Below are positions 3,209 to 10,958 of a stretch of 29,494 nt of DNA, piece after piece. Location of the stretch: IMG/VR virus record IMGVR_UViG_3300014922_000089; one strand, 5' to 3'. The position numbers were made by a program, and so were the translations under genes. The notes beneath the pieces are model-generated. The model was not told where the DNA came from and searched no databases. It was given only the letters and a program-made list of their open reading frames with translations. The DNA is from a virus (lineage: Duplodnaviria > Heunggongvirae > Uroviricota > Caudoviricetes). Every line of letters starts with the position of its first letter. Positions within the stretch are counted from its first letter, which is position 1.

Positions 3209-3433
3209 ATGCATACAGTTTCTGAAAATCAGTGCGGTATATACGCATTACTGCTGCAACAGGCCAGAACCGAAGCACAGGCCGACGCTGCGACGCGCTT
3301 TTCTTCTCATCTTGACGCCATGATTCTCCACATCACAAAGGCGGAGTTATCCCGCGTGGAGATAGTCGAGCTGCTCAGTCAGGAGTCGGAAAAATTTCAC
3401 AATATCGGATTGTCTCGCGGGGAGGTGCTTTGA
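3209..3433 (+). CDS. Hypothetical early protein (P2 orf80 position), 74 aa
   Basis: Position and size. Stop overlaps the next start (ATGA at 3430). Confidence 0.5.
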
Positions 3434-3959: not shown

Positions 3960-4231
3960 GTATTCGTATCGAAATTGGCGAACGTTATGTCGTTACCAGT
4001 GACAGCTTTCAGTTTATTCTCCACGAGAAAAAGAGAGCGGAAAGCGGTAAAAACGCCGGTCAGGAATGGCTGTCGGTGGTTGGTTATTACCCGAAATTAA
4101 GCCAGCTCGTTTCCGGCCTGATGCATCACGATATTCTGACCGGAAGCGCAAAGTCTTTTGCTGATTTAAACGCGCAGGTTGAGCAACTCAGCAAGCGTTG
4201 TTCAGAGGCTTTTGGCTCATATGGCCGTTAA
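3956..4231 (+). CDS. Hypothetical early protein (P2 orf83 position), 91 aa
   Basis: Position and size. 3' end overlaps the A start. Confidence 0.5.
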   Translation: MSIRIEIGERYVVTSDSFQFILHEKKRAESGKNAGQEWLSVVGYYPKLSQLVSGLMHHDILTGSAKSFADLNAQVEQLSKRCSEAFGSYGR

Positions 4232-6497
4232 AGCCTCCGGGCGTTTTGTCCCTCCGTCAGCATTTGCCGCAGGCACCGGTAAGGCGTTTACCGGTGCTTA
4301 TGCATGGAACGCGCCACGCGAGGCTGTCGGGCGCGAAAGACCCCTTACACGTGACGAGATGCGTCAGGTGCAAGGTGTTTTATCCACGATTAACCGCCTG
4401 CCTTACTTTTTGCGCTCGCTGTTTACTTCACGCTATGACTACATCCGGCGCAATAAAAGCCCGGTACACGGGTTTTATTTCCTCACATCCACTTTTCAGC
4501 GTCGTTTATGGCCGCGCATTGAGCGTGTGAATCAGCGCCATGAAATGAACACCGACGCGTCGTTGCTGTTTCTGGCAGAGCGTGACCATTATGCGCGTCT
4601 GCCGGGGATGAATGACAAGGAGCTGAAAAAGTTTGCCGCCCGTATCTCATCGCAGCTTTTCATGATGTATGAGGAACTCTGCGATGCCTGGGTGGATGCG
4701 CATGGCGAAAAAGAATCGCTGTTTACGGATGAGGCGCAGGCGCATCTGTATGGTCATGTTGCTGGCGCTGCACGTGCTTTCAATATTTCCCCGCTTTACT
4801 GGAAAAAATACCGTAAAGGGCAGATGACCACGAGGCAGGCATATTCTGCCATTGCCCGCCTGTTTAACGATGAGTGGTGGACTCATCAGCTTAAAGGCCA
4901 GCGTATGCGCTGGCATGAGGCGTTACTGATTGCTGTCGGGGAGGTCAATAAAGACCGTTCTCCTTATGCCAGTAAACATGCCATTCGTGATGTGCGTGCG
5001 CGCCGCCAGGCAAATCTGGAATTTCTTAAATCGTGTGACCTTGAAAACAAGGAAACCGGCGAGCGCATCGACCTTATCAGTAAGGTGATGGGCAGTATTT
5101 CTAATCCAGAAATTCGCCGGATGGAGCTGATGAACACCATCGCCGGTATTGAGCGTTACGCCGCCGCAGAGGGTGATGGGGGGATGTTTATCACGCTGAC
5201 CGCGCCGTCAAAGTATCACCCGACACGTCAGGTCGGAAAAGGCGAAAGTAAAACCGTTCAGCTTAATCACGGCTGGAACGATGAGGCATTTAATCCAAAG
5301 GATGCGCAGCGTTATCTCTGCCGCATCTGGAGCCTGATGCGCACGGCATTCAAGGATAATGATTTACAGGTCTACGGTTTGCGAGTCGTCGAGCCACACC
5401 ACGACGGAACGCCGCACTGGCATATGATGCTTTTTTGTAATCCACGCCAGCGTAACCAGATTATCGAAATCATGCGTCGCTATGCGCTCAAAGAGGATGG
5501 CGACGAAAGAGGAGCCGCGCGAAACCGTTTTCAGGCAAAACACCTTAACCGGGGCGGTGCTGCGGGATATATCGCGAAATACATTTCAAAAAATATCGAC
5601 GGCTATGCACTGGATGGTCAGCTCGATAACGATACCGGCAGACCGCTGAAAGATACTGCGGCGGCTGTTACCGCATGGGCGTCAACGTGGCGCATCCCGC
5701 AATTTAAAACGGTTGGCCTGCCGACAATGGGAGCTTACCGTGAGCTACGTAAATTGCCTCGCGGCGTCAGCATTGCTGATGAATTTGACGAACGCGTGGA
5801 GGCTGCACGCGCCGCCGCAGACAGTGGCGATTTTGCGCTGTATATCAGCGCGCAGGGCGGGGCAAATGTCCCGCGCGATTGTCAGACTGTCAGGGTCGCC
5901 CGTAGCCCGTCGGATGACGTTAACGAGTACGAGGAAGAAGTCGAGAGAGTGGTCGGCATTTACGCGCCGCATCTCGGCGCGCGTCATATTCATATCACCA
6001 GAACCACGGACTGGCGCATTGTTCCGAAAGTTCCGGTCGTTGAGCCTTTGACTTTAAAAAGCGGCATCGCCGCGCCTCGGAGTCCTGTCAATAACTGTGG
6101 AAAGCTCACCGGTGGTGATACTTCGTTACCGGCTCCCACACCTTCTGAGCACGCCGCAGCAGTGCTTAATCTGGTTGATGACGGTGTTATCGAATGGAAT
6201 GACCCGGAGGTCGTGAGGGCGCTCAGGGGCACATTAAAACACGACCGGAGAACGCCAAACCGTCAGCAAAGAAACGGAAGCCCGTTAAAACCGCATGAAA
6301 TTGCACCATCGGCCAGACTGACCCGGTCGGAACGATTGCAAATTACCCGTATCCGCGTTGATCTCGCTCAGAACGGTATCAGGCCGCAACGATGGGAGCT
6401 TGAGGCGCTGGCGCGTGGCGCGACCGTAAATTATGACGGGAAACCTTTCACTTATCAGGTCGCTGATGATTGGCCGGGATTTTTGTTACCCATTTGA
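4221..6497 (+). CDS. A: Replication initiation protein A (rolling-circle HUH endonuclease)
   Basis: Starts MAVKASGRFVPP at the ATG at 4221 (the track starts earlier at TTG). HUH-like motif HHDGTPHWHMMLF and paired active-site tyrosines in GYIAKYISKN. About 758 aa. Confidence 0.9.
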   Translation: MAVKASGRFVPPSAFAAGTGKAFTGAYAWNAPREAVGRERPLTRDEMRQVQGVLSTINRLPYFLRSLFTSRYDYIRRNKSPVHGFYFLTSTFQRRLWPRIERVNQRHEMNTDASLLFLAERDHYARLPGMNDKELKKFAARISSQLFMMYEELCDAWVDAHGEKESLFTDEAQAHLYGHVAGAARAFNISPLYWKKYRKGQMTTRQAYSAIARLFNDEWWTHQLKGQRMRWHEALLIAVGEVNKDRSPYASKHAIRDVRARRQANLEFLKSCDLENKETGERIDLISKVMGSISNPEIRRMELMNTIAGIERYAAAEGDGGMFITLTAPSKYHPTRQVGKGESKTVQLNHGWNDEAFNPKDAQRYLCRIWSLMRTAFKDNDLQVYGLRVVEPHHDGTPHWHMMLFCNPRQRNQIIEIMRRYALKEDGDERGAARNRFQAKHLNRGGAAGYIAKYISKNIDGYALDGQLDNDTGRPLKDTAAAVTAWASTWRIPQFKTVGLPTMGAYRELRKLPRGVSIADEFDERVEAARAAADSGDFALYISAQGGANVPRDCQTVRVARSPSDDVNEYEEEVERVVGIYAPHLGARHIHITRTTDWRIVPKVPVVEPLTLKSGIAAPRSPVNNCGKLTGGDTSLPAPTPSEHAAAVLNLVDDGVIEWNDPEVVRALRGTLKHDRRTPNRQQRNGSPLKPHEIAPSARLTRSERLQITRIRVDLAQNGIRPQRWELEALARGATVNYDGKPFTYQVADDWPGFLLPI

Positions 6498-6757
6498 GTA
6501 AAAACACAACGTGATTTGATATGGCATTGAATGGCTTATGCGGAGCAGTTATGGGGCAGCAGAAGGTCAATAGCATGCTGAATTAGAAGGCTAAATGCTA
6601 TTGAGTGACTAGCATGTCGGTAAGGACAGCCGTTTGATCCTGGTCATAAAAGGCCATCCATTTAGTCTAATAAAATCATTGCGGGTAACCTTATGTCGAC
6701 GCATAATTCGTCTTGAGCGAAGTCTTGTCAGTCTTTCATCGTATTGATGATGGGCGC

Positions 6758-6787
6758 AAAAAAACCACCCTGGCAGGTGGTTTTTTT
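6758..6787. terminator. Bidirectional rho-independent terminator
   Basis: AAAAAAACCACC-CTGGCA-GGTGGTTTTTTT: a GC stem flanked by an A-run and a T-run, so it works on both strands. Downstream of A (+) and of the small minus-strand ORF. Confidence 0.6.
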
Positions 6788-6799
6788 GTTTGAAGCATA

Positions 6800-6913
6800 T
6801 TAAAGCATAATGCTGACATTGATATTACTGACGTTTACTGACAAACCACTCGGACTACCGTTTGGATAGCCAAAGAGGGCCAGAACGAGAATGCAGTAAT
6901 AGCATTTCTTCAT
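6800..6913 (-). CDS. Small hydrophobic protein (37 aa), hypothetical
   Basis: ATG at 6913 preceded by a perfect AGGAGG SD at the correct spacing. Product MKKCYYCILVLALFGYPNG... Terminator immediately downstream. The longer 88-aa track ORF has no RBS. Confidence 0.35.
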   Translation of the reverse strand: MKKCYYCILVLALFGYPNGSPSGLSVNVSNINVSIML

Positions 6914-7391
6914 ATTGCCTCCTGTAAGTAGAGGGCAACTTCCACCGGTATATGCGCTTCTTAGGTGGAATGACTTTTGAGCGAAGTCTTGCCCTGAAAT
7001 AATGCTCTGTTTAAACGCAAAGTGATTTGGCATATCACCGAACAGAGAGCCGGAAAAACACAACATATAGTATGTCGTTGTTTCTAGACATACATTCTAT
7101 GTTGTGTAACAAGGGCTTTGCATTAAACATGTTTGAGATTTTATTGATGTAGCTCAAAGTAAAAAACAGAGACTACGGATGATAAGGTCTTGAAAGCAAT
7201 GTAAATTTTTTAAAGTTGCCAATTGCTTAAAAATGTACAGTTGCGGTATGGCGTACTTAAAAAGCTATGCATGCAACAAGTGAATGTTTTTGCATGCGTT
7301 GGGGATGTCCGTTCAGGCTGCGTGCGGTCAGGACTGGTGCGGATCCATAGTATCTATGCAACTGCATTAAAACCGCCCCGTGAAACGGGCG

Positions 7392-7410
7392 GGCGAGGCG
7401 GGGAAAGCAC
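7392..7410. other. cos site (19-nt cohesive-end sequence GGCGAGGCGGGGAAAGCAC)
   Basis: Exact match to the P2 cohesive-end sequence as recalled. Correct side and orientation relative to Q. Confidence 0.5.
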
Positions 7411-7424
7411 TGCGCGCAAAATGT

Positions 7425-7570
7425 TCTTGAAATATTTGTGACATAAGCTAAGACACAAAATGATTGAAGGGCAGAGCAAATCCTACAGTCCTATGCTATT
7501 GTCTCATGTAATGTAGATAAGTTGAAAATTATCTTAAAATATAAGAGTAAAGACATTAAAAGGATTGGTT
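7425..7570 (+). promoter_or_regulatory. AT-rich putative promoter / 5' UTR of the cargo gene
   Basis: Abrupt shift to AT-rich sequence right after cos. TTGAAA and TATAAG-like hexamers present. AAAGGA SD 8 nt upstream of the ATG at 7571. No confident -35/-10 pair resolved. Confidence 0.3.
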
Positions 7571-8896
7571 ATGAATAATAACTCTAAGTTATTAAGCTCT
7601 ATCTCGGTTGAATCTGATTTCGAGAACCTTATAAAACTATATGCAAATGAGTTATTTGGTGGTGAAACATATCTGATCGGTGGTCCTTGGGATAATGGAA
7701 AGGATTTGGTAATAAAAAAGGGGAATAGAGAGTTAAAGCAAGCTGTACAAATATCTATTCAAGAGAAAAATATTGAAAGTAAGATTGCTCAAGATATTAA
7801 AAAAGTGGCGAAATTGGTTGATGATCATTATTACCCGCCTGTATTATATTTTTTTTGGAGTCATTCAATATCTGAGCATTTATTGGATAAGATAAGAACA
7901 AATGCTCTTAAGGAAGATTTGATTAGATTGGAGTTTTATGATGCCAAACGAATCTCTCAAGATATTACAGATAAATACCCAGGGTTATTGAATTACTTAA
8001 TAAAAGATATACATAAGATAAGTTCTAATACTGAAGATGCAATTAACTTGCAACAAAGAGCATTTTATGAATATTTATTGTTAAGCAAAGATAGTGCTAA
8101 TTTAAAAAATGAAATAATAAAAGCTAGTATTATGTCTAATTTATATGATGGCGGGAAGTCTGCTGATGATATTCTAGAGAATCTAAAAGGTGTTAGTCTT
8201 ACAAAACGTAGTTTACAGGGTAGACTGCAAAACCTAATTCATCAAAATAAAATTAGATTGAATGATGGTATATATAGCCTGTCACCAGAGGAAATTAAAA
8301 AACTTGAGAATATAAATCTCCGTGAAATTGTTAGAAAAGAAGAGTTGTTATCAGTAATAAATAATGAGTTGCCCAGAAATACAAGTAAGAATCTGGCTGT
8401 TCAAGTTGTTGATTTAATAATAAAGGCTTATGAAGAATCAATAAATGTCCAATTAACAGAAAGTAAATTTGAGCCTCCAAAATTACAGATATTCAAAACT
8501 ATAGTACATAATTTAAAGGTGTTGATACGGCAGGAATATGATTTGGATGATGAGTCTTCGGATGCTTTAGCAAAAAAGCTAATGGAGTTGGCTGGTCAAA
8601 ATGACTATTTATCCGAGCATTGCTCTGCTAAATTATGTGTGAATCTGTTAAGTGATCGGAAATTAGAGAAATATATTGAAAATAAAAATTTTTATATCTA
8701 TTTTGATGCGCCTGTTCTTATTCCATATTTGATAACTCTTATGTTTGGAGATTTTGAGCTTTTTGATAAGTCGATTAAAAATATAAATTTACTGAGAGAG
8801 TGCATAAATCCCCTCAAAAATAAACATCTGAGAGTTTCTAATGAACATTTTGAAGAAACTGCAAGGCACTACTCTGAAGCTGAAAAATTAAGTTAG
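7571..8896 (+). CDS. Cargo protein, N-terminal segment (441 aa); possible Mrr-like PD-(D/E)xK nuclease motif
   Basis: ATG at 7571 with SD. AT-rich with K/N/I-rich codon usage, foreign to the phage backbone. Motif GGPWDNGKDLVI...IQEK resembles Mrr-type GGxxDxGxD...QxK. Ends at an in-frame TAG (8894-8896). Confidence 0.7.
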   Translation: MNNNSKLLSSISVESDFENLIKLYANELFGGETYLIGGPWDNGKDLVIKKGNRELKQAVQISIQEKNIESKIAQDIKKVAKLVDDHYYPPVLYFFWSHSISEHLLDKIRTNALKEDLIRLEFYDAKRISQDITDKYPGLLNYLIKDIHKISSNTEDAINLQQRAFYEYLLLSKDSANLKNEIIKASIMSNLYDGGKSADDILENLKGVSLTKRSLQGRLQNLIHQNKIRLNDGIYSLSPEEIKKLENINLREIVRKEELLSVINNELPRNTSKNLAVQVVDLIIKAYEESINVQLTESKFEPPKLQIFKTIVHNLKVLIRQEYDLDDESSDALAKKLMELAGQNDYLSEHCSAKLCVNLLSDRKLEKYIENKNFYIYFDAPVLIPYLITLMFGDFELFDKSIKNINLLRECINPLKNKHLRVSNEHFEETARHYSEAEKLS

Positions 8897-8959
8897 TTTG
8901 TAACTGAAGATTTAATTAGTCAACTTGGTGAGTCGAAAAATGTATACTTTAATGTTTAT

Positions 8960-9832
8960 ATGCGGTGGAAAAACAAACAGCCTAAACGTACAGACTTTTA
9001 CGATTTTACTTATGCTTTTCTAGGGTTGGATAAAGATGATATTTATGCGGGATATAAGCATGACACATTTGCGCAATGCATTCATAATTTACTAGCGTCA
9101 GCAAATATTGTTGTAATTGATAATAAAGACTCGGTGTCACAAGACTTTGTATTTAAAATAAAGCAAAAACTTAAAAGGGATTTGAATTCTTCACGTCCCG
9201 TTCGAGCCATAGAAAATGATGTTATATGTGCTGCAACTTTGAGTGATGAAACCCTACATCTTGATTCCAATGGTTACTTCAGTACTCCCATGCTAATAAC
9301 ACTTGATAGATCTCAATATCTATTGAGAAGCATAGTAAGAAATGAAAGGAGACATGCTGAATGGTTGGTTTATACCCCTCAAAGAGCAATTGAACGTCTT
9401 TCCTTGGTGGGTTTAAAAATATCATCGGAATCGTTAAAGGATGGTGTTTTAGCAACCATATCAGAAGAATATTTCTTTAAAGAAAGTTCCAGTAGTTTGA
9501 TTGATACTTTGGCTATTATCATTGGAGATAATCAAGCAAGGCAAGGAGATGTTATTAGGCTTGCATCGCTTTTAAAAAGAAAGGTCAATGAGGAATCTAT
9601 TGAGAATTCAGAAATTGATATTGAACACTATAATAACATTAGTTATGTGCTTCTTTTCATTCATCGTGAATTTAAATCTGAATTTTCAAATATAATAAAA
9701 ATTTTTGCTGAGGATAGTAGGCGAGATAAACTGGTTGAAGTTTTGTTATCCACTATTCAAGGAGTTTTTGATGAGAGTAAAAAGGAAATCTTGCGCTCAA
9801 ATATAGGACGGTTGTTGGCTGAAATGGGATGA
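8960..9832 (+). CDS. Cargo protein, C-terminal segment (290 aa); same frame as 7571-8896, no own SD
   Basis: Same reading frame as the upstream ORF. The 63 nt between them are open in that frame. No SD upstream of the ATG at 8960. Probably a continuation of one gene interrupted by an amber codon. Confidence 0.55.
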   Translation: MRWKNKQPKRTDFYDFTYAFLGLDKDDIYAGYKHDTFAQCIHNLLASANIVVIDNKDSVSQDFVFKIKQKLKRDLNSSRPVRAIENDVICAATLSDETLHLDSNGYFSTPMLITLDRSQYLLRSIVRNERRHAEWLVYTPQRAIERLSLVGLKISSESLKDGVLATISEEYFFKESSSSLIDTLAIIIGDNQARQGDVIRLASLLKRKVNEESIENSEIDIEHYNNISYVLLFIHREFKSEFSNIIKIFAEDSRRDKLVEVLLSTIQGVFDESKKEILRSNIGRLLAEMG

Positions 9833-9923: not shown

Positions 9924-10958
9924 TTAGGTATCGCAAGTATCTAGTGAGTAGTTTTTAAAGTGGATGACCTCCTGACCGAGCCAGCCGTTTATTTCCCGAA
10001 TTCTGTCCTGTAGCGGGATAAGCTCATTGCGGACAAAGACCTTTGCCACTTTCTCAATATCGCCCAGCGACCCGACGTTCTCCGGCTTGCCGCCCATCAA
10101 CTGAAAAGGGATGCGGTGCGCGTCCAGCAGGTCAGCGGCGCTGGCTTTTTTGATATTAAAAAAATCGTCCTTCGTCGCCACTTCACTGAGCGGGATAATT
10201 TTAATGCCGTCGGCTTTCCCCTGCGGGGCATAGAGAAACAGGTTTTTAAAGTTGTTGCGGCCTTTCGACTTCACCATGTTTTCGCGGAGCACTTCGATAT
10301 CGTTGCGATCCTGCACGGCATCAGTGACGTACATGATGTATCCGGCATGTGCGCCGTTTTCGTAATACTTGCGGCGGAACAGCGTGGCCGACTCATTCAG
10401 CCAGGCAGAGTTAAGGGCGCTGAGATATTCCGGCAGGCCGTACAGCTCCTGATTAATATCCGGCTCCAGCAGGTGAAATACGGAGCCGGGCGCGAAAGGT
10501 GTCGGCTCGTTGAAGGACGGCACCCACCAGTAAACATCCTCCTCCACGCCACGGCGGGTATATTTTGCCGGTGAGGTTTCCAGTCTGATGATCTTACCGG
10601 TGGTGCTGTAACGCTTTTCCAGAAACGCATTACCGAACACCAGAAAATCCAGCACAAAGCGGCTGAAATCCTGTTGTGAAAGCCACGGATGCGGGATAAA
10701 TGTCGAGGCCAGAATATTACGTTTGACGTAAATCGGTGAGCTGTGATGCACGGCAGCACGCAGGCTTTTTGCCAGACCGGTAAAGCTGACCGGTGGCTCA
10801 TACCATCTGCCGTTACTGATGCACTCGACGTAATCCAGAATGTCACGGCGGTCGAGTACCGGCACCGGCTCACCAAAGGTGAATGCCTCCATTTTCGGGG
10901 CGCTGGCGGTCATTTTTTTTGCCGCAGGTTGCGGTGTTTTCCCTTTTTTCTTGCTCAT
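9924..10958 (-). CDS. Q: Portal protein Q (344 aa)
   Basis: 344 aa, as P2 Q. Leftward operon with P. Confidence 0.9.
   Translation of the reverse strand: MSKKKGKTPQPAAKKMTASAPKMEAFTFGEPVPVLDRRDILDYVECISNGRWYEPPVSFTGLAKSLRAAVHHSSPIYVKRNILASTFIPHPWLSQQDFSRFVLDFLVFGNAFLEKRYSTTGKIIRLETSPAKYTRRGVEEDVYWWVPSFNEPTPFAPGSVFHLLEPDINQELYGLPEYLSALNSAWLNESATLFRRKYYENGAHAGYIMYVTDAVQDRNDIEVLRENMVKSKGRNNFKNLFLYAPQGKADGIKIIPLSEVATKDDFFNIKKASAADLLDAHRIPFQLMGGKPENVGSLGDIEKVAKVFVRNELIPLQDRIREINGWLGQEVIHFKNYSLDTCDT

Follow-up and report, generated by a model that had tools for sequence, protein, structure and literature searches.

A segment of about 530 bp (approximately 6679-7212) within a P2-like prophage, the IMG/VR virus record IMGVR_UViG_3300014922_000089, probably constitutes a previously undescribed type I toxin-antitoxin system, in which a 37-codon open reading frame (ORF) on the minus strand encodes the predicted toxin. 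We refer to this segment as the cassette and to the complete stretch of DNA that was analyzed, 29,494 nucleotides in length, as the window. The cassette is located in the slot that in P2 is taken up by orf91, tin and old. An initial annotation of the window had described this slot as reduced to about 0.9 kb, and the landmarks on either side agree with that description: the gene for gpA (4179-6497, plus strand) has its stop at 6497, and the 19-nucleotide sequence that we take to be that of P2 cos (GGCGAGGCGGGGAAAGCAC) is read at 7392-7410. Position 7391 of the window is the end of one linear phage record. The variable part of the slot extends from approximately 6498 to 7256, and 6679-7212 of that part is filled by the cassette.

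The initial annotation had pointed to the ORF itself, with its ATG at 6913 and its end at 6800 on the minus strand, and to an AGGAGG Shine-Dalgarno (SD) sequence in front of it. Both are borne out, the former by the list of ORFs and the sequence, the latter by the motif at 6923-6918, although the SD spacing, called ideal at the time, was slightly overstated, as 4 nucleotides represent the short end of the functional range. Taken by itself the 37-codon ORF is not beyond chance and its size is unremarkable, with 52 ORFs of at least 25 amino acids found within 5 kb. The reality of the ORF thus rests on comparative evidence, for which 13 representative cassette types were retained from scans of genomes, viral contigs and metagenomes; individual loci are given below by their L numbers.

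In all 13 representatives the ORF comprises 37-39 codons and stops at the same place, even at a synonymous difference (pS) of up to 0.9, and across the most diverged cassettes its length is still kept with synonymous sites close to saturation. In moderately diverged pairs (pS 0.2-0.7) the ratio of nonsynonymous to synonymous change (dN/dS) is 0.1-0.35, the synonymous excess is significant in all five pairs tested (Fisher p from 4e-7 to 3e-2), and the variability by codon position in the ORF is 57/27/76. The substitution pattern indicates that the ORF is under purifying selection. The initial annotation had named a conservation of the nucleotides only, and not of the ORF, as an outcome that would speak against its proposal; as evidenced by the codon counts and the dN/dS values, it is the ORF itself that is kept. 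Most homologues also have a GGAGG-like SD, with weaker versions in L021 and L077 (GGAGA) and in L019 (GGAC). Note that an extended ORF of 88 amino acids, starting from an in-frame ATG at 7066, was rejected as it is found in the window only, 11 of the 12 other representatives having a nearer in-frame stop. The alternative upstream start is absent in most of these 12, and no conserved upstream ORF was found among the representatives. We have little doubt that the 37-codon ORF is a real gene.

Its product had initially been described as hydrophobic, which holds, and strongly so, for the N-terminal third, but not for the C-terminal half, which is rich in Asn and Ser. The layout of the peptide is that of a basic N-terminus, a hydrophobic segment of 11-13 residues and an uncharged Asn/Ser-rich tail. 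The best 11-residue Kyte-Doolittle value of the window peptide is 2.46, for the stretch starting at residue 4, and across family members the best 11-residue hydropathy near the N-terminus is 2.5-3.2. Neither the 37- nor the 88-amino-acid ORF had a match in Pfam or NCBIfam at E <= 10, and only three unnamed relatives of the peptide were present in a protein database of 5.8 billion. The peptide relatives P0002 and P0003 comprise one read-through of 68 amino acids, in which the stop codon is lost, and one product of 71 amino acids with a frameshift after residue 16; these variants may be inactivated toxin alleles.

The second component of the cassette is a gene for a predicted small RNA (sRNA) that is convergent with the ORF and shares a terminator with its messenger RNA (mRNA). 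The initial annotation had reported a strong bidirectional terminator after the ORF, and this assignment stands: the arms of 13 nucleotides (CAAAAAAACCACC and GGTGGTTTTTTTG) are perfect and A/T runs flank both sides, so that termination is possible in both directions. The loop sequence is CUGGCA on the side of the sRNA and UGCCAG on that of the mRNA, the element folds as the 3' hairpin of both predicted RNAs, and stem and loop are identical in 13 of 13 representatives, strongly diverged modules included. A simple consensus terminator scan did not list the terminator at 6757-6788, which it may have skipped because the stem absorbs the T run. The two hexamers of the sRNA promoter and their 17-nucleotide spacing are kept in 12 of the 13 representatives, while the sequence of the spacer diverges; in the 13th, L019, the sRNA gene is found elsewhere and has its own, similar promoter. 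With its start set according to the position of the -10 hexamer, the sRNA folds with a z-score of -3.8. The consensus structure leaves the 5' seed unpaired, and in hairpin 1 four pairs are changed on both sides across homologues.

The two genes are connected by an exact direct repeat of 15 nucleotides (TTGAGCGAAGTCTTG), whose copies are found at 6713-6727 and 6977-6991. No third site with up to three mismatches is present in the 29.5-kb window, where 0.08 are expected by chance. As the repeat is read in opposite directions, the first 17 nucleotides of the sRNA are complementary to the leader at 6977-6993. In a comparison of 14 distinct seed/target combinations 95.4% of the cells of the resulting 17-bp intermolecular helix are paired, while slid controls pair in 24-46% of cells, and the covariation score of the helix is reached by none of 500 shuffles. 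Four pairs of the helix are changed on both sides, namely G-C to A-U, U-A to C-G, G-C to A-U and C-G to U-A, and across homologues the seed changes from UGAGCGAAGUCUUGCCA to UGAGCAAAGCCUUACCA, with the target changing alongside. The one-sided differences at the four interior varying pairs are all G·U and never A·C, which argues for RNA pairing rather than for a repeat at the level of DNA; mismatches are confined to the two ends of the helix. In L019, an Enterobacter metagenome-assembled genome (4540-4660 and 5549-5960), an insertion of about 0.9 kb with a duplicated terminator separates the sRNA gene from the toxin gene. The seed-target match there is still 16 nucleotides long despite this separation, which fits an action of the sRNA in trans. 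We consider it very likely that the pairing between sRNA and leader is real. An overlapping antisense RNA, as envisaged in the initial annotation, is not what emerged, for the predicted sRNA would pair with the 5' untranslated region (5'UTR) in trans and overlaps the mRNA only at the terminator. The suggested resemblance to type I toxin-antitoxin loci, on the other hand, is supported, with a predicted convergent partner sRNA gene and co-varying pairing to the leader, the toxin itself being a prediction.

On the side of the mRNA, no promoter had been assignable initially, but a weak and position-conserved candidate was found with a -10 hexamer TAGAAT at 7094-7099. Across the family this hexamer reads TA(G/A)AAT, and it is the only minus-strand sigma-70-like site that occurs at the same alignment position in 13 of 13 representatives. 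Two alternatives, TAAAAT (7138-7143) and TTTACA (7203-7208), were dismissed, as they have no partner hexamer or positional conservation. The predicted mRNA would thus start near 7087, with a 5'UTR of about 174 nucleotides and a total length of about 330 nucleotides. In the window it folds with a z-score of -4.4. The consensus structure of the leader consists of 26 pairs, with 92.3% of cells paired and 13 pairs changed on both sides, and its covariation score of 0.319 compares with at most 0.10 in slid controls and is reached in none of 500 shuffles. Both predicted RNAs hence have co-varying structures. From 5' to 3' the leader is arranged as a 5'-terminal hairpin, stem-loop A (SL-A), the largely unpaired target, stem-loop B (SL-B) and a small hairpin that contains the SD. 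At the place of the 5'-terminal hairpin, L004, L021, L077, L053 and others have inverted repeats of different sequence, as read from the alignment by eye. The loop of SL-A, UGCCA, is complementary to the terminator loop CUGGCA of the sRNA, and SL-B has CCACC/GGUGG in the window versus CCGCC/GGCGG in related phages. The 5'-terminal hairpin and the extensive structure of the mRNA would favor its stability.

Table 1. Predicted elements of the cassette, with their positions in the window.
Feature	Position	Strand	Details
Predicted toxin ORF, 37 codons and stop	6800-6913	minus	ATG 6913-6911, TAA 6802-6800; product MKKCYYCILVLALFGYPNGSPSGLSVNVSNINVSIML
Shine-Dalgarno sequence AGGAGG	6918-6923	minus	4-nucleotide spacer (CAAT) to the ATG
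Segment P (UUGCCCUC)	6931-6938	minus	two alternative partners, the SD and the 5' half of the target (duplex prediction)
SL-B (UUCCACC...GGUGGAA)	6940-6970	minus	alifold prediction and pair counts; 4 pairs changed on both sides
sRNA target in the toxin 5'UTR	6977-6993	minus	GGCAAGACUUCGCUCAA; 64-80 nucleotides upstream of the ATG
Segment T, 5' part of the target	6989-6995	minus	pairs with segment P (duplex prediction)
SL-A	7005-7047	minus	13 pairs, 7 changed on both sides; apical UGCCA invariant (7028-7032)
5'-terminal mRNA hairpin	7054-7085	minus	fold of the window sequence
Candidate toxin promoter	7094-7122	minus	-10 TAGAAT (7094-7099), weak -35 TGCAAA (7117-7122)
Conserved block upstream of the toxin promoter	7123-7212		in phage and plasmid versions
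sRNA promoter	6679-6707	plus	-35 TTGCGG (6679-6684), 17-nucleotide spacer, -10 CATAAT (6702-6707)
sRNA seed, copy of the direct repeat, TTGAGCGAAGTCTTG(TC)	6713-6729	plus	closely follows the sRNA promoter
Predicted antitoxin sRNA, about 75 nucleotides	6714-6790	plus	seed 6713-6729, hairpin 1 6731-6755, terminator hairpin 6757-6788
Shared bidirectional intrinsic terminator	6757-6788	both	arms CAAAAAAACCACC/GGTGGTTTTTTTG at 6757-6769 and 6776-6788, 6-nucleotide loop

The cassette is modular and mobile, and it is not specific to P2. Of 5,426 complete E. coli genomes, 152 contain its core (6670-7130), and the region 6498-7420 is found in full length in 148 E. coli genomes; in strains KO11FL and LY180 the identity of the cassette is 99.8%. 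Among the matches listed there is no RefSeq/PGAP annotation under the cassette. Homologues at the same position in other P2-like prophages, a search for which had been suggested along with the initial annotation, do exist: in the P2-type loci collected the terminator always follows the stop of gpA by about 265 nucleotides. Between the terminator and cos these loci have from about 620 to about 3,290 bp, so that the cassette occurs either alone, as in the window, or with further cargo. Three phage records carry it at 86-88% identity, each followed by different cargo genes. A core of about 430 bp is found on about 400 plasmids at approximately 73% identity, nearly all of them from Klebsiella and most of them conjugative IncF plasmids, and a far more diverged cassette on plasmids of Salmonella, Citrobacter and Leclercia was detected only via its 100% identical terminator. 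The surroundings differ accordingly between loci. In L019 and L021 the cassette follows traI and a dsbA-like gene at the end of an F-type tra region, in L005 and L077 it adjoins Abi-family genes, and in L053 it adjoins a protelomerase gene, which suggests that the latter is an N15-like phage-plasmid. In L003 it is near ThiF/MPN-family genes and a dinQ-like toxin. L003 is the Klebsiella-type plasmid pJ53-KPC_Vir, where (5399-5536) the annotated dinQ-like type I toxin gene is about 1 kb from the cassette and genes of the ThiF family, the MPN family and a 3'-5' exonuclease are about 2 kb away; the latter three may form a CBASS-like defence system.

In the mechanism that we propose, two convergent transcripts, the mRNA from about 7087 on the minus strand and the sRNA from about 6714 on the plus strand, would both end at 6757-6788, and the 5' end of the sRNA would pair with the leader at 6977-6993 and repress the synthesis of the toxin. 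With the target at 64-80 nucleotides upstream of the ATG the sRNA cannot mask the ribosome-binding site directly, and repression must therefore be indirect. Two leader segments, T and P (Table 1), offer a possible route. For the window, duplex predictions yield -11.4 kcal/mol for T:P and -10.8 kcal/mol for P:SD, and all 13 representatives have a predicted T:P helix of 6-7 bp, with -10.4 to -13.4 kcal/mol (duplexfold). Compensatory changes in this helix are found in L099, with GGUGAC:GUCACC (G-C to A-U), and in L021 (U-G to U-A), while in L053 the sequences of T and SD are identical (GGUGGCAA). Note that an automatic ungapped scoring of the T:P helix chose wrong partners, and duplexfold was used instead. 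T would normally be paired with P, and an sRNA bound to T would free P, which would then sequester the SD; the predictions suggest such a three-way competition. Blocking of a ribosome standby site or cleavage of the duplex by RNase III would have the same outcome and are equally possible. The complementary terminator loops, together with the UGCCA loop of SL-A, might provide a first kissing contact, as in the par system of plasmid pAD1, where complex formation starts at complementary terminator loops (PMC7472228).

Upon loss of the element or a shut-off of transcription, the faster decay expected of the sRNA would leave the mRNA behind, and the peptide, once produced, would damage the inner membrane. 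Carriage of the prophage or plasmid would thereby be stabilized, or an infection by a phage aborted. The locations of the cassette, at the end of the tra region, in the P2 hotspot and beside Abi genes, are typical of addiction or defence modules, and both post-segregational stabilization and abortive infection are plausible. A more far-reaching scenario can be drawn, but we regard it as unlikely. It would have the cassette, as the sole content of the tin/old hotspot in the window, act as a minimal abortive-infection system of about 0.5 kb without a protein antitoxin: a phage-induced shut-off of host transcription would deplete the labile sRNA, the stable leader would refold and open the previously sequestered SD through T:P, and the membrane peptide would kill the cell before the phage cycle ends. 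Recognition would involve two sites, a kissing contact of the terminator loop or the SL-A loop and the pairing of the 5' seed, and the whole would be an independently arisen Gram-negative counterpart of par_pAD1 with a TimP-like effector.

Several observations weigh against parts of this interpretation. Equilibrium folding with the target blocked leaves the accessibility of the SD unlowered, at about 0.1-0.3 in both states. As folding thus did not confirm the switch, it is kept only as a hypothesis that draws on duplex energies and a few covariations, and we put forward this specific anti-anti-SD mechanism tentatively, as possible rather than probable. The sequences of the kissing loops are invariant and do not permit a test by covariation, so that the idea of a kissing contact builds on conservation alone. 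For the seed-target helix, three compensatory positions out of four change together within a single clade (L004, L021, L077 and L019), which leaves few independent events. The starts of both RNAs were derived from promoter-like hexamers, the transcripts themselves are predictions, and the candidate mRNA promoter, which agrees with the consensus at only 8 of 12 bases, escaped the consensus scan. With regard to the peptide, the best 19-residue hydropathy is 1.1-1.9, versus 2.2-2.5 for TisB, Fst and Hok, and given so short a hydrophobic stretch a benign small membrane protein is possible. An AlphaFold single-sequence model of the peptide was of low confidence (pLDDT 60) and uninformative.

The last points lead to the question whether the sRNA might control a small membrane protein that is not a toxin but, for instance, modulates a membrane protein of the host, serves in superinfection exclusion or regulates lysis or entry, with the sRNA tuning its level rather than serving as an antidote. 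Many enterobacterial small membrane proteins are regulators and not toxins, and a peptide with a short, signal-peptide-like hydrophobic segment and a polar, uncharged tail, without homology to any toxin family and unlike the classic pore-forming type I toxins, would be in line with such a function. Nevertheless we think this unlikely, since a tight, layered control, here by an sRNA of its own that pairs over 17 bp and by a structured leader in which most of the SD is paired, is typical of harmful products, the cassette is found at the addiction and defence positions named above, and TimP, the protein closest in composition, is toxic (PMC7667032).

Two further explanations dispense with a functional peptide. 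The repeats could act at the level of DNA, as protein-binding or recombination sites, with the ORF being incidental; two identical 15-nucleotide direct repeats could well be binding sites, gene conversion could keep the copies alike, and the conserved block at 7123-7212 is as yet unexplained. This is nonetheless very unlikely, as conservation of the ORF is specific to codon position and its dN/dS is low, the interior differences between the repeat copies are only such that give G·U, copy 1 coincides with the predicted +1 of a conserved promoter, with a covarying hairpin and the terminator after it, and 13 leader pairs show compensatory changes. That the ORF arose by chance or is a decayed remnant after a deletion of tin/old might be argued from the fact that ORFs of this size are common by chance, from the lack of PGAP annotation among the matches listed and from the mere three unnamed matches in 5.8 billion proteins. 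It is already contradicted by the comparative data, and we consider it extremely improbable: the same cassette, with the same boundaries, is found in unrelated mobile elements, and the length of the ORF is kept with synonymous sites near saturation. A toxin under the control of an sRNA is thus the reading that we prefer.

Regarding known systems, literature searches by sequence strings and by topic returned no description of the cassette, and Rfam at permissive thresholds gave only terminator-driven, sub-threshold matches (RNAI, Phe_leader and OrzO-P). In Pfam and NCBIfam (E <= 10) and in Rfam, where matches were sub-threshold, no membership of toxin or antitoxin RNA sequences was found for hok/sok, tisB, zorO, dinQ, shoB, ldr or ibs. 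General features of type I systems are nevertheless present, namely a small protein of less than 60 amino acids (37-39 here) with a hydrophobic segment and a nearby gene for a complementary RNA, here a predicted one with a complementarity of 17 nucleotides. We therefore file the cassette as a putative new family within the type I toxin-antitoxin kind, and as a member of no named family.

Both hok/sok and srnB/pnd are type I cassettes of about 0.5 kb on plasmids, and they kill cells that have lost the plasmid; hok/sok reportedly also excludes T4. Like the present cassette they are found on F-type plasmids. Unlike in hok/sok, however, there is no Pfam match to Hok_Gef, the antisense RNA does not overlap the 5' end in cis, and the representatives do not conserve a mok-like leader ORF. 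In tisB/istR-1 and zorO/orzO the sRNA binds at a standby site. In its predicted mode of action the cassette shares with both an sRNA that acts in trans, has a complementarity of about 17-20 nucleotides and binds a long, structured 5'UTR at a distance upstream of a sequestered ribosome-binding site (PMC3919570). It differs from them in its gene arrangement and in the sequence of the toxin, which is unrelated, with no Pfam match. The OrzO-P model of Rfam reached 21 bits against a threshold of 60 bits, in a terminator-driven match that falls on the wrong strand. No LexA box was seen at the cassette, the nearest candidate, in the Kluyvera homologue L020, being CTG-N9-CAG rather than CTG-N10-CAG as counted by eye.

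In its organization the cassette matches par_pAD1 of Enterococcus faecalis (Fst/RNA II), which has relatives in Firmicutes, with its convergent promoters, shared bidirectional terminator, direct repeats and SD sequestration (PMC7472228). Common to both are convergent promoters, predicted in the present case, one shared bidirectional terminator with complementary 3' hairpins, a direct repeat that is read oppositely and through which the antitoxin is complementary to the mRNA a second time, at its 5' end, sequestration of the SD by intramolecular structure, and a small toxin, here a predicted one, on a mobile element. There are also distinct differences: a single repeat of 15-17 nucleotides replaces the two (DRa and DRb) of par, its mRNA copy is 64-80 nucleotides upstream of the ATG and does not cover the initiation region, and a YUNR motif (CUGG), as read by eye, occurs in the terminator loop of the sRNA but not in the loop of the mRNA. 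The PXXXG motif of Fst/Ldr is not found in the family alignment, the last 12 residues contain 0-1 charged residues versus 8 in Fst, and the hosts are Enterobacteria, while the par layout has so far been described in Firmicutes.

In the composition of its peptide the cassette is closest to timP/TimR, at the RyfA locus of Salmonella and E. coli. TimP is similar in size (38-41 amino acids), and it shares the signal-sequence-like N-terminus, with the motif M-basic-x-x-C-x-C-I, and the uncharged, Asn/Ser-rich tail. In the control of timP the 5' end of the sRNA pairs with the 5'UTR far upstream of a sequestered SD, and the leader adopts alternative conformations (PMC7667032, PMC11228461, PMC13000454). 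The predicted binding of the sRNA 5' end to a distant part of the 5'UTR and the logic of competition resemble this control (PMC11228461, PMC13000454). Homology to TimP could not be demonstrated, with an hhalign probability of 6% over 10 residues, no NCBIfam family matches the peptide although NCBI genome annotation does name TimP, and Rfam RyfA (RF00126) had no match at E <= 10 over 6690-7110. Moreover, the sRNA gene of the cassette is downstream and convergent, with a shared terminator, whereas timR of K-12 is upstream and divergent, and the cassette resides on mobile elements, whereas timP is at the chromosomal sseA-sseB locus.

Some features of the cassette and its surroundings deserve mention in addition. 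The conserved block at 7123-7212 contains an inverted repeat, GCATCAA-N17-TTGATGC, and the motifs TACAGAYGG and AATGTAAAT; a regulator may bind there, or the block may act as a weak plus-strand promoter that points outward (-10 TAAATT). The stretch of approximately 180 bp from the gpA stop to the cassette (6498-6678) is kept in P2-type carriers and absent from plasmid versions, and it holds a perfect inverted repeat of 10 nucleotides (6567-6576 and 6595-6604) and an imperfect one of 15 nucleotides. A likeness between 6498-6700 and the right half of the module was discounted, its score of 40 not being above that of shuffled controls (30.7 +/- 6.0). The metagenome contig L096 carries two versions of the cassette (at 3414 and 6334), 2.9 kb apart, with peptides that begin MNRVCLC and MNRWCLC and with slightly different seeds, which raises the question of cross-talk and specificity between paralogous sRNAs. 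The terminator was also tried as a handle for genome searches and given up, as it led mostly to contigs of about 2.5 kb, many of them from unrelated phyla, and gained only three new modules. The terminator core AAACCACCCTGGCAGGTGGTTT occurs on many of these contigs (L008-L043; Streptomyces, Micromonospora, Clostridium and others), which probably represent a small plasmid of the ColE1-like type or a contaminant; this may also explain the weak match of Rfam RNAI at 6703-6789.

Beyond cos, the window holds two AT-rich ORFs on the plus strand (7565-9832), of 443 (7565-8896) and 290 amino acids (8960-9832), in front of the first long minus-strand ORF (9924-10958), which we take to be gpQ from the gene order of P2. 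Neither of the two has a match in Pfam or PADLOC, and they are a candidate for an uncharacterized cargo or defence system in the second variable region of P2.

In a survey of thousands of P2-like phages, no genome was found in which both main defence hotspots lack genes (PMC13586616). The tin/old slot of the window is without an annotated gene, yet it holds a conserved and selected RNA/peptide cassette of two genes that has been missed by gene callers. If the predictions given here are correct, the few type I systems described in enterobacteria gain a further family, one that would combine the layout of par_pAD1 with a TimP-like peptide and regulation at a distance, and for which the natural compensatory variants, including G-to-A and U-to-C changes at seed positions 7, 11 and 15, can be used as a guide for mutagenesis. 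With its presence on several hundred clinically relevant Klebsiella IncF plasmids, the cassette may also aid the persistence of these plasmids.

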